Shown: positions 3,637-16,470, counted from the stretch's first letter. The stretch is DNA of 64,000 bases from Escherichia coli (GCF_002854065.1 NZ_CP024153.1); one strand, 5' to 3'. A program made the numbers and translations. The notes: generated from the sequence alone by a model not told the origin.

Positions 3637-4293
3637 CTAGTCAGGAAAAACAACAATACCCAACGCTTCGAGAAGCTGTTCTTGTTGCCAGCTGGCAATT
3701 TTGATACCTGATGTATCGACTTTTCGAGGATCTAAACCGTCGAGTTCGGCGTGACATAAATTAGCACCCTGTAGGCTAAACTGTCCCCAGACATCTTCAG
3801 AAAAAACACCTCGACTTAAGTCTGACTCTTTCAGTGATGCGCCCGCGAGGTGAGTCCCTATCCAGCGATTTTCAAACAGCTCACATTTTTCTAAACAGAC
3901 CCGCTCCATATTGGCATAAGACAGGTTACATCCAGTAATAAAGGCTGAGCAAAAGTACATACGATTACTCACTTGATTGGCAAAGTTTGCTCGGGAAAAG
4001 TTGGCCCCTTTTAAATCACACTCACGTAACTCAATACCGTAGCAATTGGCGTTACTAAAGTTTGCCATCGCAAGCTGGCATTGTTGGAAACTTGCATCGC
4101 GAAGGTCTGCGACATCAAAATGGCAACCTTCGATATCACCCTGTTCAATGAACTTGCAGTTAATAAATGTCGCATCACGCAAGTTAGCACGTCGAAAATC
4201 GCATCGGATAAAGGTGCAAGCAGTGAAAGTAATATCACTTAGATCTTGATGTGAAAAACTGTGGTGTCGATATGTGTGACGGTAGGTTTCCAT
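3637..4293 (-). CDS. qnrS: Qnr pentapeptide-repeat quinolone-resistance protein, QnrS family (closest to recalled QnrS2)
   Basis: 218 aa, METYRHTYRHHSFSHQDLSDITFTACTFIRCDFRRANLRD... with tandem pentapeptide repeats and C-terminal ...LEALGIVVFPD. Confidence 0.9.
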   Translation of the reverse strand: METYRHTYRHHSFSHQDLSDITFTACTFIRCDFRRANLRDATFINCKFIEQGDIEGCHFDVADLRDASFQQCQLAMANFSNANCYGIELRECDLKGANFSRANFANQVSNRMYFCSAFITGCNLSYANMERVCLEKCELFENRWIGTHLAGASLKESDLSRGVFSEDVWGQFSLQGANLCHAELDGLDPRKVDTSGIKIASWQQEQLLEALGIVVFPD

Positions 4294-6409: not shown

Positions 6410-6750
6410 GGCGTCGGCCTCCGCAGCGACTTCCACGATGGGGATCGGGCGAGCAAAAAGGCAGCAATTATGAGCCCCATACCTACAAAGCCCCACGCAT
6501 CAAGCTTTTGCCCATGAAGCAACCAGGCAATGGCTGTAATTATGACGACGCCGAGTCCCGACCAGACTGCATAAGCAACACCGACAGGGATGGATTTCAG
6601 AACCAGAGAAAGAAAATAAAATGCGATGCCATAACCGATTATGACAACGGCGGAAGGGGCAAGCTTAGTAAAGCCCTCGCTAGATTTTAATGCGGATGTT
6701 GCGATTACTTCGCCAACTATTGCGATAACAAGAAAAAGCCAGCCTTTCAT
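6403..6750 (-). CDS. qacEdelta1: QacEdelta1 small multidrug-resistance efflux protein (class 1 integron 3'-CS)
   Basis: 115 aa [81 protein letters not shown]... Confidence 0.9.
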
Positions 6751-6972
6751 GATATATCTCCCAATTTGTGTAGGGCTTATTATGCACGCTTAAAAATAAT
6801 AAAAGCAGACTTGACCTGATAGTTTGGCTGTGAGCAATTATGTGCTTAGTGCATCTAACGCCGCCATAAACGGCGACAGGGTGGCGCGCCTATTGCGCAT
6901 AAAATGGCGAAGCCATGCGCAACAGGCGCGGAATCTCTGGCGTCCGGTTTGATGGCTTTGTTATGCAAAGGA

Positions 6973-10768: not shown

Positions 10769-11588
10769 GGCACTGTTGCAAATAGTCGGTGGTGATAAAC
10801 TTATCATCCCCTTTTGCTGATGGAGCTGCACATGAACCCATTCAAAGGCCGGCATTTTCAGCGTGACATCATTCTGTGGGCCGTACGCTGGTACTGCAAA
10901 TACGGCATCAGTTACCGTGAGCTGCAGGAGATGCTGGCTGAACGCGGAGTGAATGTCGATCACTCCACGATTTACCGCTGGGTTCAGCGTTATGCGCCTG
11001 AAATGGAAAAACGGCTGCGCTGGTACTGGCGTAACCCTTCCGATCTTTGCCCGTGGCACATGGATGAAACCTACGTGAAGGTCAATGGCCGCTGGGCGTA
11101 TCTGTACCGGGCCGTCGACAGCCGGGGCCGCACTGTCGATTTTTATCTCTCCTCCCGTCGTAACAGCAAAGCTGCATACCGGTTTCTGGGTAAAATCCTC
11201 AACAACGTGAAGAAGTGGCAGATCCCGCGATTCATCAACACGGATAAAGCGCCCGCCTATGGTCGCGCGCTTGCTCTGCTCAAACGCGAAGGCCGGTGCC
11301 CGTCTGACGTTGAACACCGACAGATTAAGTACCGGAACAACGTGATTGAATGCGATCATGGCAAACTGAAACGGATAATCGGCGCCACGCTGGGATTTAA
11401 ATCCATGAAGACGGCTTACGCCACCATCAAAGGTATTGAGGTGATGCGTGCACTACGCAAAGGCCAGGCCTCAGCATTTTATTATGGTGATCCCCTGGGC
11501 GAAATGCGCCTGGTAAGCAGAGTTTTTGAAATGTAAGGCCTTTGAATAAGACAAAAGGCTGCCTCATCGCTAACTTTGCAACAGTGCC
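10769..11588 (+). mobile_element. IS26 copy 3
   Basis: 820 bp with both terminal repeats. Confidence 0.95.
10814..11536 (+). CDS. tnpA: IS26 transposase Tnp26 (Gly184 form)
   Basis: Identical 240-aa ORF. Confidence 0.95.
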   Translation: MLMELHMNPFKGRHFQRDIILWAVRWYCKYGISYRELQEMLAERGVNVDHSTIYRWVQRYAPEMEKRLRWYWRNPSDLCPWHMDETYVKVNGRWAYLYRAVDSRGRTVDFYLSSRRNSKAAYRFLGKILNNVKKWQIPRFINTDKAPAYGRALALLKREGRCPSDVEHRQIKYRNNVIECDHGKLKRIIGATLGFKSMKTAYATIKGIEVMRALRKGQASAFYYGDPLGEMRLVSRVFEM

Positions 11589-11628
11589 AGACAAAAGGCT
11601 GCCTCATCGCTAACTTTGCAACAGTGCC
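11589..11628 (+). repeat. Tandem second copy of the last 40 bp of IS26 (remnant of an earlier IS26)
   Basis: AGACAAAAGGCTGCCTCATCGCTAACTTTGCAACAGTGCC occurs twice in direct succession (11549-11588 and 11589-11628). Confidence 0.85.
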
Positions 11629-12137
11629 CCCTCCCGCACGATGATCGTGCCGTGATCGAAATCCAGATCCTTGACCCGCAGTTGCAAACCCTCACTGATC
11701 CGCATGCCCGTTCCATACAGAAGCTGGGCGAACAAACGATGCTCGCCTTCCAGAAAACCGAGGATGCGAACCACTTCATCCGGGGTCAGCACCACCGGCA
11801 AGCGCCGCGACGGCCGAGGTCTTCCGATCTCCTGAAGCCAGGGCAGATCCGTGCACAGCACCTTGCCGTAGAAGAACAGCAAGGCCGCCAATGCCTGACG
11901 ATGCGTGGAGACCGAAACCTTGCGCTCGTTCGCCAGCCAGGACAGAAATGCCTCGACTTCGCTGCTGCCCAAGGTTGCCGGGTGACGCACACCGTGGAAA
12001 CGGATGAAGGCACGAACCCAGTGGACATAAGCCTGTTCGGTTCGTAAACTGTAATGCAAGTAGCGTATGCGCTCACGCAACTGGTCCAGAACCTTGACCG
12101 AACGCAGCGGTGGTAACGGCGCAGTGGCGGTTTTCAT
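11629..12137 (-). pseudogene. intI1: intI1 class 1 integrase, 3'-truncated at a different point (about 170 codons retained)
   Basis: Same N-terminus as the other intI1, ends ...[12 protein letters not shown] then IS26-end sequence. Confidence 0.9.
12022..12050 (+). promoter_or_regulatory. Integron Pc cassette promoter, TGGACA-N17-TAAACT (PcH1-type)
   Basis: Hexamers read directly in the 5'-CS. Confidence 0.6.
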
Positions 12138-12211
12138 GGCTTGTTATGACTGTTTTTTTGTACAGTCTATGCCTCGGGCATCCAAGCAGCAAGCGCGTTA
12201 CGCCGTGGGTC

Positions 12212-12277
12212 GATGTTTGATGTTATGGAGCAGCAACGATGTTACGCAGCAGGGCAGTCGCCCTAAAACAAAGTTAG
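12212..12277 (+). other. attI1 recombination site of integron B (approximate)
   Basis: 5'-CS ...GCCCTAAAACAAAG/TTAG junction with the dfrA12 cassette. Confidence 0.5.
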
Positions 12278-12281
12278 CCAT

Positions 12282-12779
12282 ATGAACTCGGAATCAGTAC
12301 GCATTTATCTCGTTGCTGCGATGGGAGCCAATCGGGTTATTGGCAATGGTCCTAATATCCCCTGGAAAATTCCGGGTGAGCAGAAGATTTTTCGCAGACT
12401 CACTGAGGGAAAAGTCGTTGTCATGGGGCGAAAGACCTTTGAGTCTATCGGCAAGCCTCTACCGAACCGTCACACATTGGTAATCTCACGCCAAGCTAAC
12501 TACCGCGCCACTGGCTGCGTAGTTGTTTCAACGCTGTCGCACGCTATCGCTTTGGCATCCGAACTCGGCAATGAACTCTACGTCGCGGGCGGAGCTGAGA
12601 TATACACTCTGGCACTACCTCACGCCCACGGCGTGTTTCTATCTGAGGTACATCAAACCTTCGAGGGTGACGCCTTCTTCCCAATGCTCAACGAAACAGA
12701 ATTCGAGCTTGTCTCAACCGAAACCATTCAAGCTGTAATTCCGTACACCCACTCCGTTTATGCGCGTCGAAACGGCTAA
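12282..12779 (+). CDS. dfrA12: DfrA12 trimethoprim-resistant dihydrofolate reductase (cassette)
   Basis: 165 aa MNSESVRIYLVAAMGANRVIGNGPNIPWKIPGEQKIFRRLTEGKVVVMGRKTFESIG... Confidence 0.93.
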   Translation: MNSESVRIYLVAAMGANRVIGNGPNIPWKIPGEQKIFRRLTEGKVVVMGRKTFESIGKPLPNRHTLVISRQANYRATGCVVVSTLSHAIALASELGNELYVAGGAEIYTLALPHAHGVFLSEVHQTFEGDAFFPMLNETEFELVSTETIQAVIPYTHSVYARRNG

Positions 12780-12890
12780 CCATTCCGTCAACGGGACGCC
12801 AAAATGCTGCGCATTTTGGTTCCCTCCGCTGCGCTCCGGCTCTCGTTACGTCCAACGTTAGCACCACTGAAACCCAGCTTTATTTAGCTC

Positions 12891-13181
12891 ATGTTTATTC
12901 AAACGGCATTTAGCTTTTCAGGCGTTATTCAGTGCCTGTTTTGCCTTTTTTCCGGGCTTCGCCTGCATGGGCTGCGCAGGTTTTCAGTCTTTTTGGCCTC
13001 TAGCCCTTGCGTAGCAAGCGCAAGCAGCTATCGTTTTTGCAGTGCTGTGCCGCCTCGGTGGCGCAGCGTTTTTTCACGGTTAGCGCCCGTCGCCAAATTC
13101 AAGTTATCCGTTTTGGCTTCTGGTTCTAACATTTCGGTCAAGCCGACCCGCATTCTGCGGTCGGCTTACCTCGCCCGTTAG
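12891..13181 (+). CDS. gcuF: gcuF/orfF gene cassette of unknown function
   Basis: 96-aa ORF between dfrA12 and aadA2, the position of the classic array. Confidence 0.75.
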   Translation: MFIQTAFSFSGVIQCLFCLFSGLRLHGLRRFSVFLASSPCVASASSYRFCSAVPPRWRSVFSRLAPVAKFKLSVLASGSNISVKPTRILRSAYLAR

Positions 13182-13186
13182 ACATC

Positions 13187-13978
13187 ATGAGGGAAGCGGT
13201 GACCATCGAAATTTCGAACCAACTATCAGAGGTGCTAAGCGTCATTGAGCGCCATCTGGAATCAACGTTGCTGGCCGTGCATTTGTACGGCTCCGCAGTG
13301 GATGGCGGCCTGAAGCCATACAGCGATATTGATTTGTTGGTTACTGTGGCCGTAAAGCTTGATGAAACGACGCGGCGAGCATTGCTCAATGACCTTATGG
13401 AGGCTTCGGCTTTCCCTGGCGAGAGCGAGACGCTCCGCGCTATAGAAGTCACCCTTGTCGTGCATGACGACATCATCCCGTGGCGTTATCCGGCTAAGCG
13501 CGAGCTGCAATTTGGAGAATGGCAGCGCAATGACATTCTTGCGGGTATCTTCGAGCCAGCCATGATCGACATTGATCTAGCTATCCTGCTTACAAAAGCA
13601 AGAGAACATAGCGTTGCCTTGGTAGGTCCGGCAGCGGAGGAATTCTTTGACCCGGTTCCTGAACAGGATCTATTCGAGGCGCTGAGGGAAACCTTGAAGC
13701 TATGGAACTCGCAGCCCGACTGGGCCGGCGATGAGCGAAATGTAGTGCTTACGTTGTCCCGCATTTGGTACAGCGCAATAACCGGCAAAATCGCGCCGAA
13801 GGATGTCGCTGCCGACTGGGCAATAAAACGCCTACCTGCCCAGTATCAGCCCGTCTTACTTGAAGCTAAGCAAGCTTATCTGGGACAAAAAGAAGATCAC
13901 TTGGCCTCACGCGCAGATCACTTGGAAGAATTTATTCGCTTTGTGAAAGGCGAGATCATCAAGTCAGTTGGTAAATGA
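13187..13978 (+). CDS. aadA2: AadA2 streptomycin/spectinomycin adenylyltransferase ANT(3'')-Ia family (cassette)
   Basis: 263 aa MREAVTIEISNQLSEVLSVIERHLESTLLAVHLYGSAVDGGLKPYSDIDLLVTV... Confidence 0.93.
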   Translation: MREAVTIEISNQLSEVLSVIERHLESTLLAVHLYGSAVDGGLKPYSDIDLLVTVAVKLDETTRRALLNDLMEASAFPGESETLRAIEVTLVVHDDIIPWRYPAKRELQFGEWQRNDILAGIFEPAMIDIDLAILLTKAREHSVALVGPAAEEFFDPVPEQDLFEALRETLKLWNSQPDWAGDERNVVLTLSRIWYSAITGKIAPKDVAADWAIKRLPAQYQPVLLEAKQAYLGQKEDHLASRADHLEEFIRFVKGEIIKSVGK

Positions 13979-14032
13979 TGTCTAACAATTCGTTCAAGCC
14001 GACCGCGCTACGCGCGGCGGCTTAACTCCGGC

Positions 14033-14132
14033 GTTAGATGCACTAAGCACATAATTGCTCACAGCCAAACTATCAGGTCAAGTCTGCTTTTATTATTTTT
14101 AAGCGTGCATAATAAGCCCTACACAAATTGGG
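14033..14132 (+). other. First ~100 bp of the class 1 integron 3'-CS, cut before qacEdelta1
   Basis: Same sequence as 6760-6858 (inverted) up to ...ACACAAATTGGG, then unrelated low-GC DNA. Confidence 0.8.
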
Positions 14133-14462
14133 TAAAACCGCAAGAACTGTAATTATGAATTTGTCAGAAAACTATCCGTACAAGGAAGTGTATGAAAAAT
14201 GTCTGGTATAATAAAGATATCATCTTGAAAATCGAGTGTTGCTCTGTGGATAACTTGCAGGGTTTAATAAGTATCTTTACTCAAAAGTTGCAATCAATAA
14301 TTTATTGAAAAAGATTGAAAGGTGGTGGTAAATAATGTTACAATGTGGGAGTATCAGTTTAAATTCTTCGTGAAATAGTGTTCTTTTAAGCTAATAAAAA
14401 ATGCACGTGGAATTTAGGTCAAAGAAAAGTAAAGAAAAATTTATTTATGGAGGTAAAAAAGG

Positions 14463-14855
14463 ATGAGTCAAGTTGTTGATTTTTTAAATGAAGCAAAAAC
14501 TTTTTATTTTGCAACCGTTGAAGGAGACCAGCCAAGGGTCAGACCGTTTAATGCAGCCATGGAGAGGAATGGCAAGGTCTATCTTGGTACAACCAATCAG
14601 AAAAAAGTTTATCAGCAGTTATTGGCAAATTCAAAGGTGGAAGTCTCAGGTATGGCAAAAGGAAAATGGATTCGGCTCACCGGCGAAGCCGTAATTGATG
14701 ATACCGTGGAAGCAAGGGAAGCAATGCTTGAAGCAAATCCGCCTTTGAGAGATTGGTATAGCGCTGATGATGGGAAATTCACCGTATTTTATTTGAAAAA
14801 CATGCAGGCAGTTTTATATTCCTTTACAGGAGATCCGGAGATATTAGATAATTAA
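14463..14855 (+). CDS. Pyridoxamine-5'-phosphate-oxidase-like FMN-binding family protein (hypothetical) in low-GC segment
   Basis: 130-aa ORF with AT-rich upstream region and RBS-like GGAGG; family assignment by general sequence character, unverified. Confidence 0.5.
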   Translation: MSQVVDFLNEAKTFYFATVEGDQPRVRPFNAAMERNGKVYLGTTNQKKVYQQLLANSKVEVSGMAKGKWIRLTGEAVIDDTVEAREAMLEANPPLRDWYSADDGKFTVFYLKNMQAVLYSFTGDPEILDN

Positions 14856-15095
14856 TCAAAACATGCAGCCCAGTGGTAGAATGAACTGACCCCCATAAGT
14901 TAGACCAAAAATCTAACTTATGGGAGGTCATTTTTTATGGCAAAATACAGTTATGAATTTAAGTTACAAGTTGTTCAAGCATATTTAGATTTTTATTTTG
15001 TCCGTTTTGTCTAGCTTACCGAAAGCCAGACTCAGCAAGAATAAAATTTTTATTGTCTTTCGGTTTTCTAGTGTAACGGACAAAACCACTCAAAA

Positions 15096-15133
15096 TAAAA
15101 AAGATACAAGAGAGGTCTCTCGTATCTTTTATT
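15096..15133 (-). terminator. Bidirectional hairpin terminator downstream of bleO
   Basis: A-run, stem GATACAAGAGAG/CTCTCGTATC, T-run read directly. Confidence 0.5.
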
Positions 15134-15174
15134 CAGCAATCGCGCCCGATTGCTGAACAGATTAATAATAGATT

Positions 15175-15552
15175 TTAGCTTTTTATTTGTTGAAAAAAGC
15201 TAATCAAATTGTTGTCGGGATCAATTACTGCAAAGTCTCGTTCATCCCACCACTGATCTTTTAATGATGTATTGGGGTGCAAAATGCCCAAAGGCTTAAT
15301 ATGTTGATATAATTCATCAATTCCCTCTACTTCAATGCGGCAACTAGCAGTACCAGCAATAAACGACTCCGCACCTGTACAAACCGGTGAATCATTACTA
15401 CGAGAGCGCCAGCCTTCATCACTTGCCTCCCATAGATGAATCCGAACCTCATTACACATTAGAACTGCGAATCCATCTTCATGGTGAACCAAAGTGAAAC
15501 CTAGTTTATCGCAATAAAAACCTATACTCTTTTTAATATCCCCGACTGGCAA
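15175..15552 (-). CDS. bleO: Bleomycin-binding protein, glyoxalase/VOC fold (BleO-like, Gram-positive type)
   Basis: 125 aa MPVGDIKKSIGFYCDKLGFTLVHHEDGFAVLMCNEVRIHLWEASDEGW... matches recalled pUB110-type Ble. Confidence 0.75.
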   Translation of the reverse strand: MPVGDIKKSIGFYCDKLGFTLVHHEDGFAVLMCNEVRIHLWEASDEGWRSRSNDSPVCTGAESFIAGTASCRIEVEGIDELYQHIKPLGILHPNTSLKDQWWDERDFAVIDPDNNLISFFQQIKS

Positions 15553-15648
15553 TGCCGGGATAGACTATTATTCTCCCCGGAGCCACTACGCTGACCCGGT
15601 TGATTTCAGAGGTAAGGGAAAAGGCGACGTTGCGCCTGTGGAACAAAC

Positions 15649-16470
15649 GGCACTGTTGCAAAGTTAGCGATGAGGCAGCCTTTTGTCTTATTCAAAGGCC
15701 TTACATTTCAAAAACTCTGCTTACCAGGCGCATTTCGCCCAGGGGATCACCATAATAAAATGCTGAGGCCTGGCCTTTGCGTAGTGCACGCATCACCTCA
15801 ATACCTTTGATGGTGGCGTAAGCCGTCTTCATGGATTTAAATCCCAGCGTGGCGTTGATTATCCGTTTCAGTTTGCCATGATCGCATTCAATCACGTTGT
15901 TCCGGTACTTAATCTGTCGGTGTTCAACGTCAGACGGGCACCGGCCTTCGCGTTTTGAGCAGAGCAAGCGCGCGACCATAGGCGGGCGCTTTATCCGTGT
16001 TGATGAATCGTGGGAATCTGCCACTTCTTCACGTTGTTGAGGATTTTACCCAGAAACCGGTATGCAGCTTTGCTGTTACGACGGGAGGAGAGATAAAAAT
16101 CGACAGTGCGGCCCCGGCTGTCGACGGCCCGGTACAGATACGCCCAGCGGCCATTGACCTTCACGTAGGTTTCATCCATGTGCCACGGGCAAAGATCGGA
16201 AGGGTTACGCCAGTACCAGCGCAGCCGTTTTTCCATTTCAGGCGCATAACGCTGAACCCAGCGGTAAATCGTGGAGTGATCGACATTCACTCCGCGTTCA
16301 GCCAGCATCTCCTGCAGCTCACGGTAACTGATGCCGTATTTGCAGTACCAGCGTACGGCCCACAGAATGATGTCACGCTGAAAATGCCGGCCTTTGAATG
16401 GGTTCATGTGCAGCTCCATCAGCAAAAGGGGATGATAAGTTTATCACCACCGACTATTTGCAACAGTGCC
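15649..16470 (-). mobile_element. IS26 copy 4 (822 bp; two 1-bp insertions)
   Basis: Both terminal repeats present; extra A at about 16010 (GGGAATCTG vs GGGATCTG) and extra T at about 15953 (GCGTTTTGAGC vs GCGTTTGAGC). Confidence 0.95.
15701..16425 (-). pseudogene. tnpA: IS26 tnpA disrupted by frameshift (split into 144-aa and 107-aa ORFs; Asn184 form)
   Basis: ORFs 15991-16425 and 15701-16024 together cover Tnp26 with a frame change between them. Confidence 0.85.

Follow-up and report, generated by a model that had tools for sequence, protein, structure and literature searches.

How did a stretch of low-GC, Gram-positive-like DNA come to stand directly behind the first bases of an integron 3'-CS in Escherichia coli? 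This question is raised by positions 14132 to 15648 of the window, by which we mean the whole stretch of DNA that was analyzed (64,000 nucleotides from NZ_CP024153.1). The interval is bounded by the end of the 3'-CS at 14132 on the left and by the start of an IS26 copy at 15649 on the right. By composition count, its GC content is 37.6%, lower than that of the window (51.3%) and of the cassettes (52.3%), in keeping with the AT-rich replacement DNA described in an initial annotation; the Bacillota-derived part is at 36.6%, against the same 51.3%. That annotation took the interval for a Gram-positive-like block of about 1.5 kb, and its middle pieces are indeed of the Bacillota type, but the first 286 bp are the end of an ISEnca1 element and the last 83 bp belong to Tn2/Tn3 tnpA. 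Read piece by piece, the interval is a five-piece mosaic with base-exact junctions, not a single block (Table 1). Very probably, it is what remains of an ISEnca1 transposition unit that originated in Bacillota, inserted into Tn2, and has since been trimmed.

Table 1. Pieces of the mosaic and flanking features, in window coordinates
Feature	Position	Strand	Basis
Class 1 integron 3'-CS stub	14034 to 14132	+	Identity to the second 3'-CS copy of the window
ISEnca1 right-end remnant (IS1380 family; element positions 1370 to 1655)	14133 to 14418	+	
Predicted outward sigma-70-like promoter inside the ISEnca1 end	14315 to 14344	+	Consensus scan
Captured passenger with PNPOx-like gene ('nimC'/'orf63')	14419 to 14881	+	PF01243, 2ig6, nucleotide identity to Ruminococcaceae AM07-15
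Probable IS3-family left end	14882 to 14990	+	Identity to the start of a complete OrfA in a Ruminococcaceae genome
pUB110 fragment with 5'-truncated bleO	14989 to 15565	-	100% pUB110 identity
TATTA, right-hand copy of the 5-bp target-site duplication	15566 to 15570	.	CP082383.2 compared with intact Tn2
Tn2/Tn3 tnpA internal fragment, 83 bp, cut by IS26	15566 to 15648	+	100% identity to Tn2 tnpA
IS26 copy bounding the module	15649 to 16470	-	14-bp terminal repeats at 15649 and 16457

On the integron side, the canonical 3'-CS extends for exactly 99 bp beyond the aadA2 cassette (13187 to 13978) and its attC, matching the roughly 100 bp given in the initial annotation. This stub is identical to the second 3'-CS copy of the window (minus strand, around 6739 to 6776) up to ...CAAATTGGG, with the shared identity ending at ...CACAAATTGGG; from there the second copy runs on into the start of qacEdelta1, and the DNA beyond 14132 is unrelated and AT rich. 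The stub breaks off 12 bp short of the qacEdelta1 ATG, and the dfrA12-gcuF-aadA2 integron thus has, where a class 1 integron 3'-CS would place qacEdelta1-sul1 after the last cassette, the first 99 bp only, base 99 being fused to ISEnca1 position 1370. Neither an IS end, nor an integron recombination site, nor clear microhomology was found at this junction (14132/14133). In the window, the low-GC DNA follows the 3'-CS without an intervening mobile-element end, which would fit the scenario implied by the initial annotation, in which a Gram-positive block was inserted whole into the 3'-CS by illegitimate recombination with a Firmicutes plasmid. We nevertheless regard such an insertion as very unlikely: the junction falls inside ISEnca1, the other end of the interval is Tn2 tnpA with a TATTA duplication that is complete in a Salmonella plasmid (CP082383.2), and most carriers (the pOLA52 type) have IS26, rather than the 3'-CS, on the left. 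Because the junction cuts ISEnca1 internally, at position 1370, and because Tn2 tnpA was the original target, the fusion to the 3'-CS is a later, secondary event, namely a deletion. The reported boundaries and compositional break are real, but the vehicle of the segment, ISEnca1, and its original target, Tn2 tnpA, had been missed.

The 286 bp that follow the junction are the last of ISEnca1, an element presumably named after Enterococcus casseliflavus, and they share 87.7% identity with the ISEcp1 right end found in thousands of plasmids. The remnant keeps the last 25 transposase codons (14134 to 14211) and an ISEcp1-type terminus, with the right inverted repeat (IRR), ...ACGTGGAATTTAGG, ending at 14418. 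In CP082383.2, the homologue of 14133 to 14418 is contiguous on its upstream side with an annotated ISEnca1 transposase, and the remaining 1,425 bp of ISEnca1 in that relative are 91.7% identical to ISEcp1 (about 92% as an overall figure). Neither a complete transposase gene nor the left inverted repeat is present in the window and, since both have been deleted, the unit is no longer able to move. The left part of the element was found in three relatives only (CP082383.2, CP082444.1, and CP030182.1).

It is CP082383.2 that shows how the segment would have arrived. In this plasmid, ISEnca1 and an identical passenger interrupt Tn2 tnpA with TATTA on both flanks, whereas the intact Tn2 of NC_024961.1, to which it was aligned, has a single TATTA at the site, the alignment breaking between reference positions 4005 and 4001; the right-hand copy of this 5-bp target duplication is the one retained in the window. 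A later insertion of IS26 into ISEnca1 is marked in CP082383.2 by an 8-bp duplication at the positions corresponding to 14181 to 14188. Without that IS26 and its duplication, the unit measures 2,802 bp, of which 1,655 bp are ISEnca1 and 1,147 bp the DNA that follows it (14419 to 15565). The unit is reconstructed, since no fully intact copy free of IS26 was found: wherever the left part of ISEnca1 survives (three records), IS26 has inserted at 14181 to 14188. As judged from these alignments, the TATTA-flanked ISEnca1 with its passenger is the signature of ISEcp1-type one-ended transposition. The presumed surrogate right end (15548 to 15565) agrees with the true IRR at 4 of 18 positions, a value that is uninformative and does not count as positive evidence; ISEcp1 is known to tolerate weak ends.

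The resemblance to ISEcp1-blaCTX-M extends further than the family (IS1380) and the level of identity. In both cases, the passenger gene starts 44 to 45 bp past the IRR behind an outward promoter, the target is duplicated over 5 bp, and the right end is an unrelated surrogate. The ISEnca1 end contains a predicted promoter consisting of TTGAAA, an 18-nucleotide spacer, and TACAAT, with TG ahead of the second hexamer (10 of 12 consensus matches); it faces the passenger gene, its -10 element ends at 14344, and the stretch is homologous to the ISEcp1 end found 45 bp ahead of blaCTX-M-55. Expression of blaCTX-M is driven by a promoter that ISEcp1 provides, and the ISEnca1 promoter may well be active here in the same manner. 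In contrast to the blaCTX-M units, the passenger in this case is a PNPOx-like gene from Bacillota together with IS3 and pUB110 debris, without a proven resistance function, and the transposase and left inverted repeat are gone.

Several pieces point to Bacillota as the source. E. faecium plasmid pE211-2 carries 14133 to 14972 at 99.6% identity, including an identical PNPOx-like protein, between ISEnfa1 and IS1216; ahead of 14133 it has a further 53 bp, which most likely belong to ISEnca1 as well. Ruminococcaceae bacterium AM07-15 carries 14419 to 14990 at 98.3% identity, beside a 33-bp remnant of the ISEnca1 IRR and a relaxase gene. In a scan of one genome per species, every one of the 53 genomic homologues of the PNPOx-like protein came from Bacillota (Clostridia, Erysipelotrichales, and Negativicutes), the closest, at 95% amino acid identity, being that of a Ruminococcaceae isolate. 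Together with the enterococcal relatives of the IS3-family end, the pUB110 fragment, and the low GC content, these matches support a Bacillota origin on sequence grounds. Accordingly, the cross-phylum acquisition proposed in the initial annotation, now embedded in an enterobacterial resistance region, is upheld, with identities of 100% to pUB110, 99.6% to pE211-2, and 98.3% to the Ruminococcaceae genome. High identity to proteobacterial sequences alone would have spoken against it; instead, the comparison with Firmicutes plasmids yielded Enterococcus plasmids matching the pUB110 part and pE211-2 matching 14133 to 14972. One might argue for transfer in the reverse direction, with the ISEnca1-PNPOx block having arisen in Proteobacteria and moved into Enterococcus, on the grounds that copies are far more numerous in Enterobacterales than in Bacillota plasmids and that ISEcp1, the 91.7% identical relative of ISEnca1, is an element typical of Enterobacterales. 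However, the plasmid database is heavily biased towards Enterobacterales, and the taxonomy of the 53 homologues, the enterococcal plasmid relatives of the IS3-family end, the attached pUB110 fragment, and a GC content of 36.6% make this direction highly improbable.

The only intact gene of the segment, and the sole candidate for a function in it, is the PNPOx-like gene. The 130-amino-acid protein of the FMN-binding family noted in the initial annotation was confirmed: its coding sequence spans 14463 to 14855 (plus strand), is preceded by GGAGG at 14449 to 14453, 9 nucleotides upstream of the ATG, and matches PNPOx_N (PF01243) with 38.6 bits, above the gathering cutoff of 28.1. The protein is identical to WP_000084745.1, present in both E. 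coli and E. faecium records. Its nearest solved relative is PDB 2ig6, a structural-genomics entry deposited as a 'NimC/NimA family protein', which it matches over its full length (phmmer E value of 3.4e-36; profile E value of 7e-55), and the fold is therefore that of the FMN-binding split beta-barrel of the PNPOx superfamily. Despite the label 'nimC', membership of the Nim 5-nitroimidazole resistance family was rejected by every test that we ran (Pfam, NCBIfam, and PDB profile). PF12900 scored 20.7, under its cutoff of 27, and an NCBIfam scan at an E value of ≤0.01 returned no Nim model, the library being one that holds the AMRFinder Nim models. A PDB profile search to an E value of 10 retrieved no entry annotated as a nitroimidazole-resistance protein, the sole 'Nim' label being the name chosen by the depositors of 2ig6.

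At 34 of the 53 native Bacillota loci, the homologue lies about 125 bp from a divergent regulator of the HxlR family, sometimes with FMN reductase and NmrA-like genes close by. Regulators of this family typically govern how quinones, electrophiles, and nitro-aromatic compounds are detoxified. The place of the regulator is taken, in the mobile copy, by the end of ISEnca1, and the gene, which lies downstream of the cassette array, is probably transcribed from the ISEnca1 outward promoter, with read-through from the integron Pc. The native HxlR partner and its replacement by the ISEnca1 end suggest a flavoprotein of stress response or detoxification whose expression has become constitutive. That the gene is the truly selected cargo, a hitherto unrecognized flavin-dependent enzyme acting on a redox-activated veterinary drug, either by inactivating it or by failing to activate it, is a speculation to which we assign a low probability; ISEnca1 would then have exchanged the regulator for a constitutive promoter, much as ISEcp1 activates blaCTX-M, and the drug could be a nitroimidazole, a nitrofuran, or a quinoxaline-di-N-oxide (olaquindox or carbadox). 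If true, such selection would help explain the persistent linkage to oqxAB in pig- and poultry-associated plasmids.

Downstream of the passenger, the probable left end of an IS3-family element begins with TGAACTGACCCC and contains a hairpin at 14892 to 14924. The transposase start that the initial annotation had placed around 14938 to 15012, with some 25 codons, is present, but the small open reading frame (14937 to 15014) comprises only 18 genuine OrfA codons (14937 to 14990), followed by 7 codons of read-through into noncoding pUB110 DNA. The 109-bp end, with its 18 codons, recurs identically in the Ruminococcaceae genome, where it continues into a complete 131-amino-acid OrfA (HTH_28 and HTH_Tnp_1); here, the rest of the element is absent. 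The end is also 76 to 83% identical to the ends of ISEfa10-like elements in Enterococcus plasmids. From 14989 to 15565/15566, the sequence (578 bp) matches both the pUB110-derived NZ_OU015478.1 and Enterococcus plasmids at 100% identity. Since the pUB110 fragments in Enterococcus continue further to the left, 14989 represents a true breakpoint inside pUB110. The joint between the IS3-family end and pUB110 was found in 453 records. Among the matches inspected, no Gram-positive plasmid carried it: the full-length matches were all from Enterobacterales, and the Enterococcus and Staphylococcus records matched just the pUB110 half of the query.

In comparison with the aadD-bleO region of pUB110, as known from Staphylococcus and Bacillus, the 578 bp include the native bleO terminator (15099 to 15130) and codons 5 to 134, but neither aadD nor the bleO promoter nor a start codon. 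The fragment ends 13 to 14 nucleotides into the 134-codon gene, leaving a truncated bleO at 15175 to 15564 (minus strand) that has lost both of its starts (GTG and ATG) and, with TAA TAG in frame directly upstream, is not a complete gene. The claim that the segment encodes a pUB110-type bleomycin-binding protein is thus borne out as far as the match to NCBIfam NF000027 (297.9 bits, cutoff of 275; residues 1 to 125 aligned with model positions 10 to 134) and the identity to pUB110 are concerned, but with the 5' truncation and the missing start, actual encoding is doubtful. AMRFinder calls bleO in either case, over 402 nucleotides in pUB110 and 387 nucleotides here.

A working resistance module under selection, with BleO made from an internal start such as the TTG at 15550 to 15552, could be argued from the open reading frame of 15175 to 15552, which scores above the NCBIfam BleO cutoff, and from the names bleO, blmS, or ble given to the gene by annotation pipelines and in published papers. 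We consider this unlikely: the native starts, ribosome-binding site, and promoter are all gone, the in-frame stops lie directly upstream, no Shine-Dalgarno sequence precedes the TTG, and the TTG-initiated product would be without its first 9 residues, the part that forms the exchanged N-terminal strand in dimers of the Ble family (Sh-Ble and BLMA structures). Moreover, the cut falls precisely where the transposition unit ends, so that it appears to be an accident of where transposition stopped. With no start codon, ribosome-binding site, or promoter, the bleO remnant is most likely inert.

At the right-hand edge of the unit, the 83 bp of 15566 to 15648 (53% GC) are proteobacterial DNA and match the tnpA gene of the intact Tn2 (NC_024961.1) at 100% identity. 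The ISEnca1-mediated history that we favor runs as follows. In Bacillota, ISEnca1 lies 44 bp upstream of the PNPOx-like gene, itself adjoining an IS3-family element, an arrangement documented by the donor-side copies. The IS3-family element was cut and joined to a pUB110 fragment, as recorded in the junction at 14989/14990. One-ended transposition of ISEnca1 into Tn2 tnpA, shown by the target duplication in the relative, then duplicated TATTA and carried along the 1,147 bp of DNA behind the element, stopping by accident within bleO codon 5. Finally, to judge from the junctions, IS26 presumably trimmed Tn2 on the right, and a deletion removed ISEnca1 positions 1 to 1369 and joined the remainder to base 99 of the 3'-CS.

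Two descendant lineages can be told apart: in the common pOLA52 type, an IS26 at 14181 removed the rest of ISEnca1, whereas the type seen in the window has no IS26 there, retains an additional 48 bp of ISEnca1, and joins the 3'-CS. A closer comparison with pOLA52 revealed the same ISEnca1/PNPOx, IS3/pUB110, and pUB110/Tn2 junctions and, over 14181 to 15648, differences at three positions, all of the indel type. The left boundary in pOLA52 is IS26 at 14181, compared with the integron 3'-CS at 14132/14133 here; on the right, pOLA52 has 137 bp of Tn2, compared with 83 bp here, which places the right IS26 54 bp closer. A GGCACTG microhomology was considered as the cause of this shorter Tn2 fragment and rejected, being off by one base (the T is missing); a deletion adjacent to IS26 or an independent insertion is more likely.

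The module is already known, published, and widely copied and is not a new resistance element. A 'deltaTn2-IS26-ble(blmS)-orf63/nimC-deltaISEnca1' segment upstream of Tn6010 (oqxAB) is described in four papers (PMC5645526, PMC7823714, PMC9035464, and PMC6387526), with pOLA52, pHNSHP45-2, pHNYJC8, pHNEP124, and a Salmonella Indiana chromosome among the published carriers. In the available text of open-access papers mentioning ISEnca1, the TATTA-flanked unit, the precise truncation of bleO, and the loss of the HxlR partner are not spelled out. Having been drawn in plasmid maps since pOLA52 and annotated automatically, the module itself holds little that is new for the field. What our analysis does add is a correction: the 100% identical 'bleO' with which hundreds of enterobacterial plasmids are credited is a fragment lacking its start, cut where an ISEnca1 transposition unit ends, and in the absence of a phenotype such calls should not be taken for bleomycin resistance. 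It also illustrates cleanly how an ISEcp1-like element has brought Bacillota DNA into a proteobacterial transposon, with the TATTA duplication in Tn2 and the donor-side copies in E. faecium and the Ruminococcaceae isolate.

As for its spread, the interval is present, over 80% or more of its length, in at least 384 plasmids. The IS26-bounded module (10769 to 16470) is now spreading among Enterobacterales plasmids, and the block presumably persists mainly by hitchhiking between IS26 copies. The exact 3'-CS::ISEnca1 junction occurs at 100% identity in at least 46 plasmids from seven genera, and at least 37 records contain the whole stretch of 11000 to 16470 with an identity of no less than 99.4%. 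That these 46 plasmids are independent, along with the recurrence of the longer module and the 453 records of the IS3::pUB110 junction, leaves next to no room for the junctions being assembly chimeras in the window, which might otherwise be suspected from indel-type differences, typical of long-read assemblies, at 14871 to 14875, 15953, and 16015. The latter two positions fall in the right-hand IS26, which measures 822 bp and contains two 1-bp homopolymer insertions, relative to other IS26 copies and to p14EC007b, that split the transposase frame. Over 11629 to 16470, p14EC007b and the window differ by four single-base indels only.

The PNPOx-like gene (130-aa flavoprotein) circulates as two alleles, one represented by the window and the other by the Salmonella plasmid CP082383.2, with identical flanking junctions in both. 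Five clustered differences from the window are common to the CP082383.2 allele and the copy of Ruminococcaceae bacterium AM07-15 (L008), a sharing that, as judged from sequence comparison, hints either at recombination between copies of the gene or at a donor pool that was sampled repeatedly. In L008, the ISEnca1 right end is reduced to 33 bp and is separated from the upstream region of the PNPOx-like gene by 32 bp without counterpart in the window; this arrangement could stem from an insertion that occurred independently or from a small deletion. Since a relaxase gene adjoins the PNPOx-like gene there, the AM07-15 copy is probably carried by a mobile element as well. In Bacillota genomes (L009-L055), homologues of the gene have a divergent HxlR-family regulator ~125 bp upstream at 34 of 53 loci; DUF1349 is found nearby in 9 loci, and FMN_red and NmrA-like genes are recurrent neighbors.

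Within the spacer that separates the PNPOx-like gene from the IS3 end, the window reads CCCAGTGGTAG, whereas all relatives examined (E. coli, Salmonella, E. faecium, and Ruminococcaceae) read CCCAAGTGTAG; this indel-type difference is probably a sequencing error.

Farther downstream, the Tn2 fragment measures 83 bp, compared to 137 bp in pOLA52 (L002). The sequence GGCACTG occurs in Tn2 itself, just beyond the point at which the IS26 of the window starts, and IS26 begins with GGCACTGTTGCAAA. A simple microhomology deletion at this junction was considered and rejected, as the junction departs from one by a single base. The transposase of the adjoining IS26 is broken into two open reading frames by 1-base homopolymer insertions, and its length is 822 bp, whereas plasmid p14EC007b has an ordinary 820-bp IS26 in the matching position. 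Such a copy is either a dead IS26 or the product of an error in long-read assembly.

The window contains seven full IS26 copies and, besides these, an extra IRL-type IS26 end. Three substitutions set three of the copies apart from three others (see the table), and two IS26 variants thus coexist in the window. One copy has its last 40 bp present twice in tandem (AGACAAAAGGCTGCCTCATCGCTAACTTTGCAACAGTGCC in each case) ahead of the truncated intI1, an unusual arrangement that may be either a genuine duplication or an assembly artifact. Elsewhere, the start of a second integron 3'-CS was observed to be intact.

Coordinates of the features discussed (window positions unless stated otherwise)
Feature	Position	Strand
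Full IS26 copies	1981-34293	
IS26 copies sharing three substitutions	15649, 27458, 33474	
IS26 copies used for comparison	1981, 5344, 10769	
Second integron 3'-CS, start	~6739-6776	minus
IS26 with repeated end	10769-11588	
Tandem 40-bp repeat	11549-11628	
PNPOx-like gene	14463-14855	
Clustered allelic differences	14503, 14550-14551, 14754-14755	
Spacer indel	14871-14875	
Tn2/IS26 junction	15640-15662	
Corresponding Tn2 region, pOLA52	L002 5468-5535	
IS26, right edge of segment	15649-16470	
Homopolymer insertions	15953, 16015	
Extra IRL-type IS26 end	23184	
Region of the reduced ISEnca1 right end, AM07-15	L008 3751-3818
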